Positions 13,958 to 37,955 of a stretch of 42,240 bases of DNA are shown here, piece after piece. Within the stretch, counting starts at the first letter, position 1. The number at the start of each line of letters is the position of its first letter. The translations under genes were made by a program, and so were the position numbers. The notes under the pieces were generated by a model. It saw nothing but the letters and a program-made list of their open reading frames with translations, was not told the DNA's origin and ran no database searches. Source of the stretch: a virus; UHGV virus genome UHGV-0128348, one strand, 5' to 3'.

Positions 13958-13961
13958 GCCC

Positions 13962-13986
13962 AAAGAAAAAGCCCACCGAAGTGGGC
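13962..13986 (-). terminator. rho-independent terminator (minus strand), convergent with previous
   Basis: Hairpin GCCCACTTCGGTGGGC followed on the minus strand by TTTTTCTTT. Confidence 0.5.
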
Positions 13987-14363
13987 CTTACAGCTATCAT
14001 CATTTTTTATTAGGTGTGGTGCCGGGTGCCTCCCGGTGAGCATGCCCCAACAGACATCACTCGCGTGGTATTCACAGGGCTTTCGCTCTATTAGTTGGAC
14101 GCCCCTCCGCATAGGGGGATTCACCACACGGATAATTTAGGATGTAGTCATGGGCGGCGTCAATAACTGACACTCTGTCAAAGGCACCATTACGATGCCT
14201 TTTGCACAGTGCTAATCACTGGCTCTAATAAGGGGCCAGAGCAAAGCGATTACCCCGGCTACCAGCACGCCATCAGCCAGGATTGACATCATTTTGCTGG
14301 TGAAGTCGATAGCAACCACCAGAAACAAAAGCACCCCAGCTGCGGCCCAGCGAAGTTTACCGA

Positions 14364-16745: not shown

Positions 16746-17058
16746 AATCCAAGACGATTAACAGAAAAACTGCCAATCACTTTGGTAAATCAGGACAATC
16801 CGTTGGCATTAGATGCAATATAGCAACAAGTAAACACTTCATAAATGCCATTTGGTTATATAAAGAATGACTTAACAACTCCATTTGTTATAAATGCTAT
16901 ATATTGATAGTTGAGCATATTTAGGCACTAAATATGTCCAATTACTGTTAATTGGCTATGTATATATTGAACCTATTCCCCGAGCTCCACATAAGTTCCG
17001 TTTCGTGGAGCCGATACCGACGGTTTTGCACCGGAAGAATCTTCGCGGGAGTATGTAG

Positions 17059-17131
17059 TGCTGGTTGACGGAACTGAACCGCCTACATCCTGCTTACAAG
17101 GCAGGCGCTCTCCCAACTGAGCTAACCCAGC
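17059..17131 (-). tRNA. tRNA-like gene, anticodon UGU (Thr), with non-canonical features
   Basis: Minus-strand cloverleaf: acceptor GCTGGGT, D-arm GCTCAGTTGGGAGAGC, anticodon stem CCTGC/GCAGG with loop CTTGTAA, T-arm GGCGG-TTCAGTT-CCGTC; G6-A67 mismatch; G at position 58; no encoded CCA. Confidence 0.5.
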
Positions 17132-28677: not shown

Positions 28678-29310
28678 ATGAGCCTTGCAGAACGCGTAAA
28701 ACAAAAAAGAATCGAACTTGGTCTTACTCAAGAGCAAGCAGCTGAAAAGGCAGGAATAAGGCAACAATCATGGGCCAGCATTGAGGATGGAAAAACTAAA
28801 AAGCCTCGCAACATAGTAGGAATAAGCAAAGCACTTAAGTGCGACCCAACATGGTTGATGAACGGTGGGCCTTTCATGGCTCTGGACGATGTGAATTCAA
28901 GGAAAGTACCTTTGATCAGTTACGTCCAGGCTGGAGCGTTAGCAGAAAAACACCCTATTGATGCATTTGATGGTAGCTTCGAATACATCATGACTGACCT
29001 TGATATTTCTGAGTTTACTTTTGCACTAAGGATAGAAGGTGATTCAATGGAGCCTGACTTTAAAGAAGGCGACATTATCATTGTTGATCCAGAGTTAGAG
29101 CCCGTTCCGGGCGAATTTGTTGTTGCTAAAAATGGTGAAAATGAGGCTACTTTTAAAAAGTACCGTCCTACATTTACCGATATTTCAGGCCGCCAGCAAT
29201 ATGAACTGGTCCCCCTTAATGACGACTACCCCACCATTAATAGCTCTGAACGCCCGTTGAAAATTATCGGCGTAATGGTCGAACATAGAATTTACAGGCG
29301 AAAAAGGTAA
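28678..29310 (+). CDS. CI-like repressor (HTH plus S24 LexA-type autopeptidase domain)
   Basis: 210-aa ORF; N-terminal HTH ...LGLTQEQAAEKAGIRQQSWASIEDG...; C-terminal ...GDSMEP... Ser and downstream Lys; GGAGG RBS. Confidence 0.8.
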   Translation: MSLAERVKQKRIELGLTQEQAAEKAGIRQQSWASIEDGKTKKPRNIVGISKALKCDPTWLMNGGPFMALDDVNSRKVPLISYVQAGALAEKHPIDAFDGSFEYIMTDLDISEFTFALRIEGDSMEPDFKEGDIIIVDPELEPVPGEFVVAKNGENEATFKKYRPTFTDISGRQQYELVPLNDDYPTINSSERPLKIIGVMVEHRIYRRKR

Positions 29311-29326
29311 ATCCTTCCTCACATGA

Positions 29327-29351
29327 ACCGGCCGGCGCCGGTTTTTTTACG
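29327..29351 (+). terminator. rho-independent terminator after cI
   Basis: Hairpin AACCGGC-CGGC-GCCGGTT followed by T7. Confidence 0.55.
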
Positions 29352-29410
29352 TCTTTAGTTTCATAAAAAACAATAAATTACAGTTTTTTTAGTATAGATC
29401 ATCACTCAAT

Positions 29411-29455
29411 ACAGTTTTGACTGTTGACGCATTAACAGTTTTATCTGTATTATTA
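29411..29455 (+). promoter_or_regulatory. OL/pL-like promoter with overlapping operators
   Basis: TTGACG (29424..29429) and TATTAT (29448..29453) with operator half-site repeats ACAGTTTTGACTGT and AACAGTTTTATCTGT. Confidence 0.55.
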
Positions 29456-29556
29456 ATTCATCAACAGCGAACAGGCAGGACGCCCACGAAGTAGCCGCCC
29501 GGGGCATATGAAGACCAGGATGATTCGCTAACAGATAAACCAAATAGGAACAGAAC

Positions 29557-29790
29557 ATGGCGAGCAAAGGCATTGAAAACCTTATCAAGGACGCATTAGC
29601 AAACGGCTGTCATGTAGTCCGTAAAGCGCATCGCTTCGAAGTAAGCAAGAAAGGCAAAAAATCAATCACTCTTATTATTTGTGAAGATGGCACAGCTTAC
29701 CGCGGAGATATTGACCTAACGATCGCCATAGCCATTCGCACTCAAAAAGAAATGCGTAGCGTCCTCGGCCTGCCGGCTAAGGCAATTTAA
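29557..29790 (+). CDS. hypothetical small protein, first gene of early-left operon (N position, not N-like)
   Basis: 77-aa ORF with AGGAA RBS; no Arg-rich N-terminal motif. Confidence 0.5.
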   Translation: MASKGIENLIKDALANGCHVVRKAHRFEVSKKGKKSITLIICEDGTAYRGDIDLTIAIAIRTQKEMRSVLGLPAKAI

Positions 29791-29799
29791 TTACCTCAG

Positions 29800-30700
29800 G
29801 TGTCTTCGGGAGGGGTTGCGGAGCTGGATTGACCACCAGCAACAGAAACTCACCCGACATACAGCAGCCGTTTAACCCACGGCGTCGGGGGTCCAGTAGA
29901 CCTGGATTAATACTGTAGGGGTTGTGCCGGTTGGTCGCCGGCGCCCCGCCCGAAGATACCTGATCGAACATGGCGAAAGCCGACAGCGTTGAAGGCGATT
30001 TTCTCGGTTTGCGCGCTAAACAATAGCGGGGGTGAAATCGGGGCGGAGAAGCAGAATCCGCGATGTCGGGACTTGATACTTCCGGCCATACCAACAAGCC
30101 GAATGATCGCGTAACGATCCTTTGCATCTGCCCCGGCGAGGTGGCGCCGCCGGACCGGGGTAGATGAATCGTACACAACATGAAAGCGCATTCCATCTTC
30201 ATACGTCGTGGGGACTGGTTTGTAACTGAAGGAGTGCGCTTCCAGTTGTGAACGGCAATATTCACGACCGTTGTATGGCACATGCAGCGTTAGCAGCCCG
30301 GATGGTTCCCTTGAAGTTCCATGCGCTATCCGGACAACTGGAATGTGCAAGCTAAGTGTTTCAGGCACGACGTGCGCCCCACCAGCGCGGCGAAAAGGTG
30401 TGACGCCCGGGAAGAGTCCGGGACACAACGATGAGGGCATTGACGAGCAAGGCACAGAGTCTGGTTCGATTCCAGACGCCAGGATAGTTCTATATCTGGT
30501 GATGGGCAGGGAAAAGGTCCGTTCGATTCGGACACCGGCAGTGCTCTCTTCGTTGTGGTAATTGCGGCTATGCGCACGTGACGAGCCAAACCCGTTCATT
30601 GAATGCGTTTCCGGGCAGTGTACGTCGCCGGTTATGGCTTAACCCGGCAGGTGGAGGCACCACCGCCACAACCTAGTTAACTGTGCTGTGTGTAGTCTTG
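29800..30700 (+). other. GC-rich segment without convincing ORFs; candidate structured noncoding RNA or leader
   Basis: About 0.9 kb with only short or overlapping low-complexity ORFs; many local hairpins; two tRNA T-arm-like hairpins at 30460..30476 and 30517..30533. Confidence 0.4.
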
Positions 30701-30770
30701 GCGGTTATCCAGTTTTCCACTATCCAAAGGAGGAAGAGGATAACGTTCTGATGGATAACCGCCCTTTTTA
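30700..30770 (+). terminator. large terminator-like hairpin with T-run (tL-like)
   Basis: GGCGGTTATCCA ... TGGATAACCGCC 12-bp perfect stem then CTTTTT. Confidence 0.5.
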
Positions 30771-30908
30771 CACAATACACAAGAGCATCACCGGGCGACG
30801 GGCTCATAACCCAATCCACCCGGGCGGCGTCCTAACCGCAGGTGCTCTTCTGTGTTGTGTACGGAGAAATTCCCGGCGGTGGCAGCCGCCTTTCGAGAGG
30901 GTAAAACC

Positions 30909-31280
30909 ATGAGTAATGATCGCATGACAGTCGTGCCCGATTTCCTGGGCGAACTGGACGCCGGCGTATTCATGAACAAGATTGCGGCGGCTCTGAATAC
31001 CACCGCGCTCGGCGTTCTGAACAACGGCAACAAAGGCAAAGTAGTCCTGACCTTTGATTTTGAGCGTATGGGCAACTCTGTTGAAGAGAAGCGCGTCAAG
31101 ATTAAGCACAAGCTGAACTACAGCACCCCAACTCCCCGCGGCAAAGCGTCGGAAGAGGACACCACCGAAACACCAATGTGGGTCAATAAAGGCGGCAAGC
31201 TCACCATCCTGCAGGAGGATCAAGGGCAACTCTTCGGTATCACCGGCACGGTGGACGGAAAGCTTAAAGCGGCTCAGTGA
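30909..31280 (+). CDS. hypothetical early phage protein
   Basis: ATG 30909 with GAGAGGG RBS inside ORF 30852..31280; about 123 aa. Confidence 0.55.
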   Translation: MSNDRMTVVPDFLGELDAGVFMNKIAAALNTTALGVLNNGNKGKVVLTFDFERMGNSVEEKRVKIKHKLNYSTPTPRGKASEEDTTETPMWVNKGGKLTILQEDQGQLFGITGTVDGKLKAAQ

Positions 31281-36473: not shown

Positions 36474-36680
36474 ATGCTGAGCCTCGATTGTGTTCCCATC
36501 TCAACTTATTGCAAAGAGACAGGCGAAACCCCTGATGCCATAAATAAGCGCATCCAGCGCGGCGTATGGCGTGAAGGGGTACAGGTGCTAAAGGTCGAAG
36601 GCGTTAAGGAAAGATGGATAGATCTTAGTGAGGTTGCAAAATGGGCTCGACAAAATCGCCTAAACTCCCGCGCGGCGTAA
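36474..36680 (+). CDS. xis: excisionase
   Basis: Small basic ORF directly upstream of and overlapping integrase; start at second ATG with GGAG RBS. Confidence 0.55.
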   Translation: MLSLDCVPISTYCKETGETPDAINKRIQRGVWREGVQVLKVEGVKERWIDLSEVAKWARQNRLNSRAA

Positions 36681-37831
36681 CGATCAGGAAACATAGTACT
36701 GGGGAAACTATCAATATTACCTTTACCTATAAGGGGGTGAAATGCCGGGAACCTTTATCAAACCTTGAAATTAATAGCAAAAACATTAAATACGCCGAGC
36801 GAACACTCGGCGAAATTCACAATAAAATTGAGCGGGGTACATTCAATTATGGTGAACACTTTCCCCGTTCGGCACGACTTAAAATATTTGGTAATTCTTC
36901 AACAGGAAAAACGGTAAAAAATTATCTCGATGAATATCTTGTAATTTGTGAAACGAGAAAATTATCTCCCTCAACAATCGGCGGATATAAGAAATGTTTA
37001 AATGCTCTGGCATCACTTCACGTTTTTCCTGCCAGCGAATTAACACCTGCTGCTTTAAAAACATGGATCCAGAGTCAGAAAACGACATTAAAGACGATTA
37101 GGAACCAACTTTCATTCCTACGCTCAGCACTGGATGAAGCTGTGACTGATGGTGTATTGCAGATTAACCCTGTTTCACTGGTGACAGCCTCGCGCTACCA
37201 GAGTAGTAAAACCGAGGATGAAAGTGATTATATTGTTGATCCGCTTTCGCCAGCCGAGGTTGAAGCGCTTTTGCATGCCGCAGGTAACAAGCAGTGGGAA
37301 AACATATTCCGCTTTGCAATTGAAACCGGGCTACGTAGTTCTGAACTCTGCGCCCTCCGTTGGCGCGATATCGACTTTATCGGCAAAACAGCGCATGTGC
37401 AAAATGCCAGCGTAGTGGGGGTAATTAAGGGCACGAAAACTAAAGCTGGAACACGTAAAGTTGAGTTAACCGAAGAAGCCTTGTATGCCCTGACTTCTCA
37501 GAAGCCTTTCACCTTTATGAAAGATGCAACGATCTTTGAGGATCCTAAGACAGAAAAACCATGGGCGGGTGCCGATGCGATAAGAAAGAAAGCCTGGGTG
37601 CCAACTTTACGTAAAGCTGGGATCAGGTACCGTAATCCATACCAGACCAGGCATACGTTCGCGACCCGACATATAAGTCGTGGCGCTAACCTGTTCTGGC
37701 TGGCATCACAGATGGGACATAAAGGGCCAGAAATGTTGTTCAGGCATTATGGACGCTATCTGAAGGAGTATGACGGCAACACTGAAAAACGACCCAAGCT
37801 GGTCAGCGGTGGAACCTCAAAGGAGCCGTAA
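36641..37831 (+). CDS. int: tyrosine integrase (lambda Int family)
   Basis: 396-aa ORF with C-terminal catalytic region ...RHTFATRHISRGANLFWLASQMGHKGPEMLFRHYGRY...; adjacent att core. Confidence 0.85.
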   Translation: MGSTKSPKLPRGVTIRKHSTGETINITFTYKGVKCREPLSNLEINSKNIKYAERTLGEIHNKIERGTFNYGEHFPRSARLKIFGNSSTGKTVKNYLDEYLVICETRKLSPSTIGGYKKCLNALASLHVFPASELTPAALKTWIQSQKTTLKTIRNQLSFLRSALDEAVTDGVLQINPVSLVTASRYQSSKTEDESDYIVDPLSPAEVEALLHAAGNKQWENIFRFAIETGLRSSELCALRWRDIDFIGKTAHVQNASVVGVIKGTKTKAGTRKVELTEEALYALTSQKPFTFMKDATIFEDPKTEKPWAGADAIRKKAWVPTLRKAGIRYRNPYQTRHTFATRHISRGANLFWLASQMGHKGPEMLFRHYGRYLKEYDGNTEKRPKLVSGGTSKEP

Positions 37832-37889
37832 AGGATCCGCAGCAAAACGCTAAATTTTTTTATCATTGTTTATCATGATGTTATTAAGT

Positions 37890-37925
37890 TTCGGGCGCGG
37901 GTTCAACTCCCGCCAGCTCCACCAA
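37890..37925 (+). other. tmRNA (ssrA) 3'-end fragment = prophage att core
   Basis: TTTCGGGCGCGGGTTCAACTCCCGCCAGCTCCACCA matches the enterobacterial ssrA 3' end as I recall it; upstream sequence is not ssrA. Confidence 0.7.
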
Positions 37926-37955
37926 ACATTCATTCATGATGCATCATGAACCTTA

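Follow-up and report, generated by a model that had tools for sequence, protein, structure and literature searches.

The window analysed here is the whole of UHGV virus genome UHGV-0128348, a viral DNA stretch of 42,240 nucleotides (nt). Our subject is its segment at 29791-30775, which lies near a cI-like repressor gene, between a gene for a 77-amino-acid (aa) protein and a yfdP-like gene. The segment is non-coding and specifies, on its + strand, a chain of structured RNA domains that are shuffled as modules among related phages and whose boundary grammar is homologous with that of the dicF and STnc1310 loci. We assign the element to the class of dicF-type processed prophage small RNA (sRNA) precursors, with at least one RNA domain that lacks an Rfam family. 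On balance, we lean towards the view that the segment is a pL-driven polycistronic non-coding RNA of a lambdoid prophage, which is cut into several stable small RNAs.

A gene-free segment with a structured RNA on the + strand

The original prediction described 29791-30775 as free of open reading frames (ORFs), and this description held. No credible ORF was found in the segment. The mechanical ORFs inside it (- strand, 168 and 230 aa; + strand, 96 aa) have no Pfam or PHROGs match, unlike the genes flanking the gap, which match these databases strongly. The + strand of the whole segment folds with -406.7 kcal/mol as compared to -357.1 +/- 7.1 kcal/mol for shuffled sequences (z score of -7.0). 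The z score of the - strand is -3.0.

Rfam covariance models were scanned against 29300-31000. None reached its gathering threshold and none came close at an expectation value (E) of <= 10, thus the scan suggested as a check returned no known family. Matches to mir-1246, osmY and SNORD65 were discarded as noise. The Rfam transfer RNA (tRNA) model found nothing in the same interval even at E <= 10, and ARAGORN detected neither tRNA nor transfer-messenger RNA (tmRNA) in the region. An RNase P-like reading of GGAAGAGUCCGGG and GAGCAAGGC was also dropped; no RNase P match was obtained, and GGAAGAGUCCGGG is a covarying hairpin.

The suggestion of a long structured RNA agrees with the absence of a conserved reading frame, the covariation, the preference for the + strand and the transcripts known from homologous loci. 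The segment does not form a single large fold, however, but a series of independent modules that recombine. Covarying base pairs, which homologues of a functional RNA were expected to show, were found from alignments in the double T-arm core, the 5' domain and module M1, and by eye in the cassette (Table 1).

The double T-arm core

The core is a 135-nt domain near the middle of the array. The two T-arm hairpins of the original prediction lie exactly where it had placed them (Table 1), and both have the 5-base-pair (bp) stem and the 7-nt UUCRANY loop of a T-arm. Their stems covary and their loops are nearly invariant. They belong to no tRNA, since both ARAGORN and the Rfam tRNA model are negative for a complete tRNA in the segment. 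The junctions of the core (ACGAGCAAGG, UGGGCA and ACC) are purine-rich and invariant across diverged phages. The variable hairpin between the T-arms is 17, 21 or 24 nt long in relatives.

We aligned 32 distinct core sequences. The consensus contains 36 pairs, with 92% of the alignment cells paired and compensatory changes in 10 pairs. The covariation score is 0.225 as compared to 0.105 for shuffles (none of 500 reached the observed score), and slid controls gave at most 0.072. From this alignment we built a covariance model, R1, which gives 148.8 bits for the + strand and 24.1 bits for the - strand; therefore, the functional molecule is the + strand RNA. No Rfam family matches the core. In first-order Markov simulations of the window, a single T-arm-shaped hairpin is unremarkable, occurring 1.8 times per 42 kb on both strands. 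A pair of T-arms with the same loop, 57 nt apart and within a covarying domain of 82 viral contigs, is not a product of chance. The canonical T-loops and the GG-containing junctions suggest that these may be tRNA-elbow-like modules which engage tRNA-handling factors.

The core occurs in 15 of 50,697 phage records, in 78 of 5,426 complete Escherichia coli genomes and in 82 IMG/VR contigs. A genome-wide species scan with the core motif gave four exact matches (one in Citrobacter, two in Buttiauxella and one in Izhakiella); therefore, the core is uncommon and restricted to Enterobacterales. In all cases it is either without annotation or covered by "hypothetical protein" calls. A literature search that left aside Faubladier and Bouche (1994), whose dicF-related prophage sequences are a possible partial precedent, found no paper on the element, on its sequences or on a link between DicF and tRNA-like RNAs.

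Boundary sequences and shuffling of modules

In Salmonella phage ST64B, Citrobacter phage phiNP and Stx2a_1447, too, the gap between the cI-like and yfdP-like genes carries no annotation. BLAST searches showed that the segment is a mosaic: 118 records match some part of it, its pieces match different phages, and no record covers 80% of it. A motif from the T-arm region retrieved the 82 IMG/VR contigs, of which 38 representatives were laid side by side. Around the core we counted 24 combinations of modules, drawn from 10 unrelated upstream ones and 14 unrelated downstream ones.

The modules obey a common boundary grammar. The closing helices of the domains are about 20 bp long, with CACAAC at the 5' foot and GUUGUG(G) at the 3' foot. 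Each cassette begins with the helix-foot GUUGUGG, which we call the pivot, and ends with CCACAAC. The motif C[AC]CAAC closes the slot 58-162 nt past the pivot in 58 of 64 arrays, as compared to 11% in shuffles. Three of the six exceptions hold a genuine tRNA-Arg(UCU) in the slot, with an acceptor stem that begins inside the pivot. In two other loci (L046 7975-8099 and L013 1116-1241) the slot holds tRNA-like cassettes that score 44.5 and 39.9 bits, above the Rfam tRNA threshold. Their D- and T-arms are perfect, a tetraloop or hexaloop takes the place of the anticodon loop, and 57 nt are inserted into the variable region; ARAGORN missed both.

The modules are also used in other settings. In SPC32H the module chain stands alone as a gene between head and terminase genes, with a promoter and a terminator of its own. 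In the siphovirus Bas81 it is the leader of a tRNA-Ser/tRNA-Arg operon. "Hypothetical protein" coding sequences lie over homologous modules at L089 1865-2206 (Bas81_0062), in F1055 and in 118970_sal3, one of them on the opposite strand. These annotations are probably spurious gene calls.

Other modules of the array and their genomic setting

The coordinates of all features are collected in Table 1.

Table 1. Position and basis of the features in the early-left region of the window
Feature	Position	Strand	Basis or detail
S24/HTH cI-like repressor gene	28678-29310		followed by its own terminator, then by a promoter-like site
pL-like promoter, TTGACG-18-TATTAT	29424-29453	+	consensus scan, 10 of 12 matches
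5' leader of the early-left transcript, AACAGCGAACAGGCAGGACGCCCACGAAGUAGCCGCC...GAUGAUUCGCU	29463-29529	+	conserved
77-aa protein gene, between leader and RNA array	29557-29790	+	phrog_12911, E 2e-37
Module M1, multi-hairpin, closing helix of 18-19 bp (29798-29816 with 29943-29961)	29798-29961	+	RNAalifold
Module M1b, GC-rich, includes hairpin CAUCUGCCCCGG...CCGGGGUAGAUG	29962-30173	+	minimum free energy (MFE) pairing, homologues
Module M2, nearly perfect hairpin of about 21 bp, CACAACAUGAAAGCGCAUUCC...GGAGUGCGCUUCCAGUUGUG; putative RNase III site	30174-30250	+	z -4.3
5' (pseudoknot) domain	30278-30422	+	covariation
5' domain, outer helix GCACAU/AUGUGC	30278-83 with 30343-48	+	
5' domain, H-type pseudoknot	S1, 30374-77 with 30385-88; S2, 30380-83 with 30397-400	+	
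5' domain, hairpin CCCGG-GAAGAGU-CCGGG	30406-22	+	loop GAAGAGU invariant
Double T-arm core, 135 nt	30424-30557	+	covariation, covariance model R1
Core, closing helix P1, 18 bp, CACAACGAUGAGGGCAUUG with CAGUGCUCUCUUCGUUGUG	30424-42 with 30539-57	+	
Core, T-arm 1	30459-77	+	TCTGG-TTCGATT-CCAGA at 30460-30476
Core, variable hairpin	30478-500	+	sequence free, stem kept
Core, T-arm 2	30517-33	+	GTCCG-TTCGATT-CGGAC at 30517-30533
Cassette, cloverleaf-like five-way junction, closing stem GUUGUGGU/GCCACAAC	30552-30672	+	MFE fold
Single-stranded tail with seed-like 15-mer GCUGUGUGUAGUCUU (30685-30699)	30673-30699	+	
Intrinsic terminator, 12-bp stem GGCGGTTATCCA (30700-30711)/TGGATAACCGCC (30752-30763), then CTTTTT	30700-30769	+	z -5.0
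Post-terminator hairpin of about 22 bp, ACACAAUACACAAGAGCAUC...GGUGCUCUUCUGUGUUGUGU, directly before the yfdP-like gene	30770-30860	+	z -6.6

Upstream of the core, the RNAalifold consensus of M1 (12 sequences of three sequence types) has 41 pairs, nine with compensatory changes. Homologues of M1b were found in phiNP (76% identity over query positions 187-394), L004 and L078. The helix of M2 is maintained by compensatory changes in L013, L046, Bas81 and Qin (GCGC/GCGC vs. GGGC/GCCC). The 5' domain has 22 pairs, which are 99.4% paired, and six of them show compensatory changes. Both stems of the pseudoknot, in which GCGC/GCGC is interleaved with CACC/GGUG, are among these six. The covariation score of this domain is 0.241, whereas shuffles gave 0.097 (none of 500 reached the observed score) and slid controls did not exceed 0.053.

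Downstream of the core, the cassette starts with GUGGUAAUU and a hairpin and ends with a GGUGG-AGGCA-CCACC hairpin (30650-64) that abuts the closing stem. The stem of the latter hairpin covaries (GGUGG/CCACC, UCUGG/CCAGA, CCGGG/CCCGG) around an invariant loop, and compensatory changes in the cassette homologues of L040 and Bas81 were recognised by eye. The tail motif GCUGUGUG(U/A)AGUCUU is retained in 36 of 64 arrays. The 12-bp stem and T-run, predicted originally to end the segment, are present. The structured element extends beyond the interval first proposed, to the leader on one side and to the hairpin past the terminator on the other. This hairpin is conserved in ST64B, Stx2a_1447 and L013, and it may be a processing site or a translational control element for the downstream mRNA.

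The predicted promoter near cI and the 77-aa gene were both found, and the gene belongs to a phage protein family (Table 1). ST64B, phiNP and Stx2a_1447 have a promoter region at the equivalent position. The leader is common to ST64B, phiNP and many IMG/VR relatives, whichever sequence comes next, and it has no stable fold by itself (z -0.15). The 77-aa gene is absent from ST64B, phiNP and Stx2a_1447, where the RNA modules directly follow the leader or promoter. In the window, the gap of about 1 kb ends at the yfdP-like gene (30909-31280), 3' of which are a DUF2303 gene and an HD-domain gene.

Elsewhere in the window, ARAGORN's only find is a tRNA-Thr (UGU) gene at 17058-17131 on the - strand. 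The region 37870-37935 contains GGGCGCGGGTTCAACTCCCGCCAGCTCCACCA, which we take to be the 3' end of E. coli ssrA (tmRNA). A 396-aa ORF (36641-37831) lies just before this site, suggesting an integrase and a prophage attachment site at ssrA, which would mark the prophage end.

A model for processing of the transcript

Experimental data on homologous loci bear on how the array may be processed. In Qin, the 190-nt form of DicF is RNase III-dependent and the 53-nt form RNase E-dependent, and both derive from a DicA-repressed polycistronic transcript. Counting 190 nt back from the 3' end of dicF, an approximate mapping, leads to the 3' strand of the long Qin helix; the Qin counterpart of M2 thus sits at the mapped RNase III-dependent 5' end of 190-nt DicF. 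In ST64B, the source of STnc1310 is an M1 homologue with 81.5% identity to M1 of the window. The 5' end of STnc1310, from converted and therefore approximate coordinates, lies within the 3' strand of the M1 helix, and the 3' end of this RNA coincides with a terminator. Two independent experimental 5' ends are therefore at the RNase III cut positions expected by the model.

According to this model, derepression would allow pL to transcribe the leader, the 77-aa gene and the array, and each domain would fold during synthesis. RNase III would then cut the helices of about 20 bp and release the domains, by analogy with the Qin dicBF transcript. GUUGUGG is both the 3' foot of a helix and the 5' stem strand of the next cassette; therefore, cutting of the helix would let the cassette fold, with the freed pivot pairing with the downstream CCACAAC to close it. 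The last unit, 30552-30769 (cassette, tail and terminator, about 220 nt), would be the counterpart of the 190-nt DicF precursor. Trimming by RNase E would yield a terminator-bearing sRNA whose exposed GCUGUGUGUAGUCUU could act on host mRNAs in trans. The 135-nt double T-arm domain would come free as a separate RNA, and the terminator at 30700-30769 would attenuate read-through into the yfdP-like early genes. For this phage we infer the processing steps of RNase III and RNase E, the action in trans, its targets and the role of the T-arm domain.

Several points weigh against this reading. The transcript and processing data come from homologous loci rather than from this phage. The ends of 190-nt DicF and STnc1310 are placed only approximately, and the RNase III sites are assigned by analogy. 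The MFE fold of the single core sequence fails to recover T-arm 1. The cassette and tail fall under the Rfam thresholds for STnc100 (no match) and DicF (16.5 bits). GUUGUGG is contested by the closing helix and the cassette stem, and perhaps only one of them forms in vivo. Complementarity to the tail was searched within the window, where nothing but the seed itself matches.

A wider proposal is possible, and we put it forward tentatively. The array may be one instance of a recombination-shuffled "non-coding RNA operon" system in enterobacterial phages, in which RNA cassettes, tRNAs and tRNA-like RNAs are joined by the CACAAC/GUUGUGG/CCACAAC pivot in an rrn-like manner, with boxA in some. DicF, STnc100/PasD, STnc1310 and RprA's 3' third would then be pieces of one such system, and the double T-loop domain would represent a novel RNA class that mimics the tRNA elbow and has a function of its own during infection. 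The pivot would serve at once as RNase III helix foot, as closing stem of the next cassette and as mosaic junction.

Alternative explanations

The original prediction also raised an RNA-based antitermination element, which was not borne out. As an explanation of the segment, a cis-acting processive antiterminator (put-like or boxA/Nus), acting on the terminator at 30700-30769 and on Rho in a phage without N, appears quite improbable to us. Its attractions are the position after pL and before the terminator and the yfdP, DUF2303 and HD genes, the perfect boxA GCUCUUUAACAA(U) in 12 of 148 related loci, and the protection from Rho that a long untranslated transcript would need if it behaves as the rrn operons do. 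However, there is no GCTCTTWA in the region, and no match to the boxA sequence GCTCTTTAACAA within three mismatches in 29400-30900. The UGCUCU of the P1 3' strand is base-paired. A blastn search (word size 7) against the whole genome of HK022, which carries put sites, gave chance matches only (best E 0.6); this comparison is of sequence only, the put coordinates being unannotated in the record. Moreover, the same modules form a self-contained gene in SPC32H and the tRNA-operon leader in Bas81, outside early operons, and the unit ends in a terminator. Module content and boundaries vary freely, which fits products rather than one cis-acting fold.

The double T-arm domain could instead be chiefly a tRNA-elbow mimic, serving as a decoy for, or recruiting, factors that bind tRNA (for example RNase P, TruB, TrmA, tRNA-targeting defence nucleases or the ribosome), with the rest of the array as an expression and processing scaffold. 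This is compatible with the processed-precursor reading, and we regard it as rather unlikely. The two canonical T-loops (UUCRAUY), nearly invariant on covarying stems of 5-6 bp, are what such a mimic would have, and GG dinucleotides in the invariant junctions could take the role of the D-loop. Adjacent slots hold real tRNAs or tRNA-like cassettes of 40-45 bits in the Rfam tRNA model, and the domain is found in lambdoid, epsilon15-like and other phages. However, the domain lacks an acceptor end, an anticodon arm and CCA; no match was obtained with ARAGORN or with the tRNA, tmRNA and Y-RNA-type models of Rfam; no partner protein gene is consistently adjacent; and the core is rather rare in phage records and E. 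coli genomes. A decayed tRNA cluster or recombination scar, in which CACAAC/GTTGTGG are DNA crossover points and the RNA has no function, is very improbable. It would account for the mosaic junctions that fall on these repeats, for the T-arm remnants and for the real tRNAs in equivalent slots of some phages, but not for helices preserved by compensatory substitutions across sequence types in four domains, nor for junction sequences that stay invariant in diverged phages. The G-U pairs and the strand preference of the model favour RNA over DNA, the homologues are expressed and processed, and 6-7 bp alone are too short for homologous recombination. A frameshifted or unrecognised protein gene is effectively refuted. 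The - strand ORFs of 168 and 230 aa and the "hypothetical protein" annotation over homologous DNA in some phage records could be quoted in its support, but there is no Pfam or PHROG match, the indels between homologues are not multiples of three, modules are replaced wholesale, and substitutions conserve base pairs rather than codons.

Among the relatives, the perfect rrn-type boxA, GCUCUUUAACAAU, is on the array strand, right after the pL leader or M1. We located it, for example, at L006 4826-4864, L013 100-150, L019 7180-7230, L093 860-900 and in L142 (- strand). It is preceded by A6 and a hairpin, and on the opposite strand this hairpin terminates a convergent inserted gene (156-aa ORF in L006). 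The A6-hairpin-boxA unit looks like a bidirectional terminator or nut-like module. Nus-dependent antitermination of the arrays is plausible in these boxA-bearing relatives, and their layout as a whole is reminiscent of rrn operons; for the window this is an analogy.

Relation to known systems

The HK022 put and lambda nut-N systems, like our segment, lie in the early-left transcript of a lambdoid phage, and no N-like gene was noted in the window. The segment differs from them in having no sequence similarity and no boxA, and in that its modules occur outside early operons. The likeness to rrn operons is one of organisation: a long untranslated polycistronic RNA with long-range helices bracketing domains and, in some relatives of the array, tRNAs in slots and a perfect boxA. 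Unlike rrn operons, the window has no rRNA homology and no boxA, and its products would be small phage RNAs. The array resembles tRNAs and tRNA-like processing signals, such as mascRNA from MALAT1 and gammaherpesvirus TMERs, in its T-arm hairpins, and in the cassette an acceptor-like stem stacks on a hairpin of T-arm-like shape. The segment has no complete tRNA, and an involvement of RNase P would be conjecture. The M3 RNA of phi80, a phage RNA processed by RNase P, was considered as a possible relative.

RprA of E. coli K-12, an sRNA of the core genome that depends on Hfq, contains the identical 15-mer GCUGUGUGUAGUCUU at nt 62-76, immediately 5' of its terminator. In L052 and L046 the array tails can be aligned with rprA nt 60-110 (82-85% identity, E of about 1e-7; 35.7 bits with the RprA model). 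The window gave no match to this model (RF00034, threshold 70 bits) and has no similarity to the 5' two-thirds of RprA, which include the rpoS-pairing part. The homology of the RprA 3' third (15-mer and terminator) with phage array tails hints at a phage origin or at mimicry.

STnc100/PasD (RF02076) has a 5' GUGGU(G/A)AAU followed by a hairpin, and a 3' NNNGG-AGGCA-CCNNN hairpin that abuts a closing stem CACCAC. The cassette of the window carries this signature as GUUGUGGUAAUU-GCGGCUAUGCGC ... GGUGG-AGGCA-CCACC-GCCACAAC. With the STnc100 model, whose threshold is 47 bits, sister cassettes reach 44.9, 35.1 and 34.4 bits, and the window cassette itself gives no match even at E <= 10. STnc100 is a stand-alone gene, whereas the cassette is embedded in a longer transcript. 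A genuine STnc100 with its own terminator is present elsewhere in the window (13958-14152, - strand, 96 bits) and has the scaffold GUGGUGAAU...CCGGGAGGCACCCGGCACCAC in common with the array cassette. An unannotated second STnc100-like cassette lies between dicF and dicB of E. coli K-12 (L087 2464-2585, 34.4 bits). The function of STnc100 is poorly defined. A 2026 preprint describes the homology of STnc100 and PasD and reads tRNA-like matches near prophage sRNAs as integration remnants.

STnc1310 of ST64B occupies the same slot, between the cI-like sb38 and the yfdP-like sb37. It reaches about 2,300 transcripts per million under peroxide and nitric oxide shock, alongside lytic genes, and was termed functionally uncharacterised by its authors. 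In ST64B (L002), M1 leads at once to a terminator and gives a 74-nt RNA, whereas in the window M1 is followed by more modules with no terminator until 30769. ST64B also differs in lacking the double T-arm core (no R1 match).

The closest architectural parallel is DicF. Like the window array, the Qin dicBF locus is a repressor-controlled early operon beside the immunity region. In both, an untranslated stretch holds a helix of about 20 bp, ending with GGUUGUGG in Qin, which is followed by a cassette (GUUGUGG/CUGCAAC in Qin), a single-stranded seed and a terminator (GGCGG...CCGCC in Qin). The last unit of the window is thus, like DicF, the 3'-terminal unit of an early prophage transcript after a long helix and a structured cassette, and the 5' part of DicF and the window tail are at equivalent positions. 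Qin 2252-2441, the 190-nt DicF precursor, aligns with the sequence that follows the core without a gap in L077 (identity 74.7% over 194 nt, E 9e-29). Window positions 30687-30764 score 16.5 bits (E 2) with the DicF model (RF00039, threshold 48), as compared to 76.7 bits for the Qin control. Because the cassette and tail of the window stay under the Rfam thresholds, the link between the window and DicF rests on architecture and intermediate arrays, not on direct sequence homology. The window differs from Qin in that its tail carries another seed, the one identical in RprA, and its array has about three times the length. Qin lacks M1, M1b, the pseudoknot domain and the double T-arm core (R1 gave no match on L087), and no dicB-like gene was seen right after the window array, where the next gene is yfdP-like.

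For a long time DicF has been regarded as an oddity of a single cryptic prophage, and STnc100, PasD and STnc1310 as orphans without relation to one another. The locus described here suggests that they are one modular family of processed phage RNAs with a common boundary grammar. If true, this would account for prophages making and exchanging new small RNAs and for the clustering of tRNA-like matches near prophage sRNAs. With M1, the pseudoknot domain, the double T-arm core and the cassette scaffold, the locus adds four alignable, covariation-supported domains that match no Rfam family here, and it marks several "hypothetical protein" annotations of phage records as likely to be spurious. It also yields a testable processing model with predicted RNase III sites, and a candidate seed for action in trans that is shared, base for base, with part of RprA.

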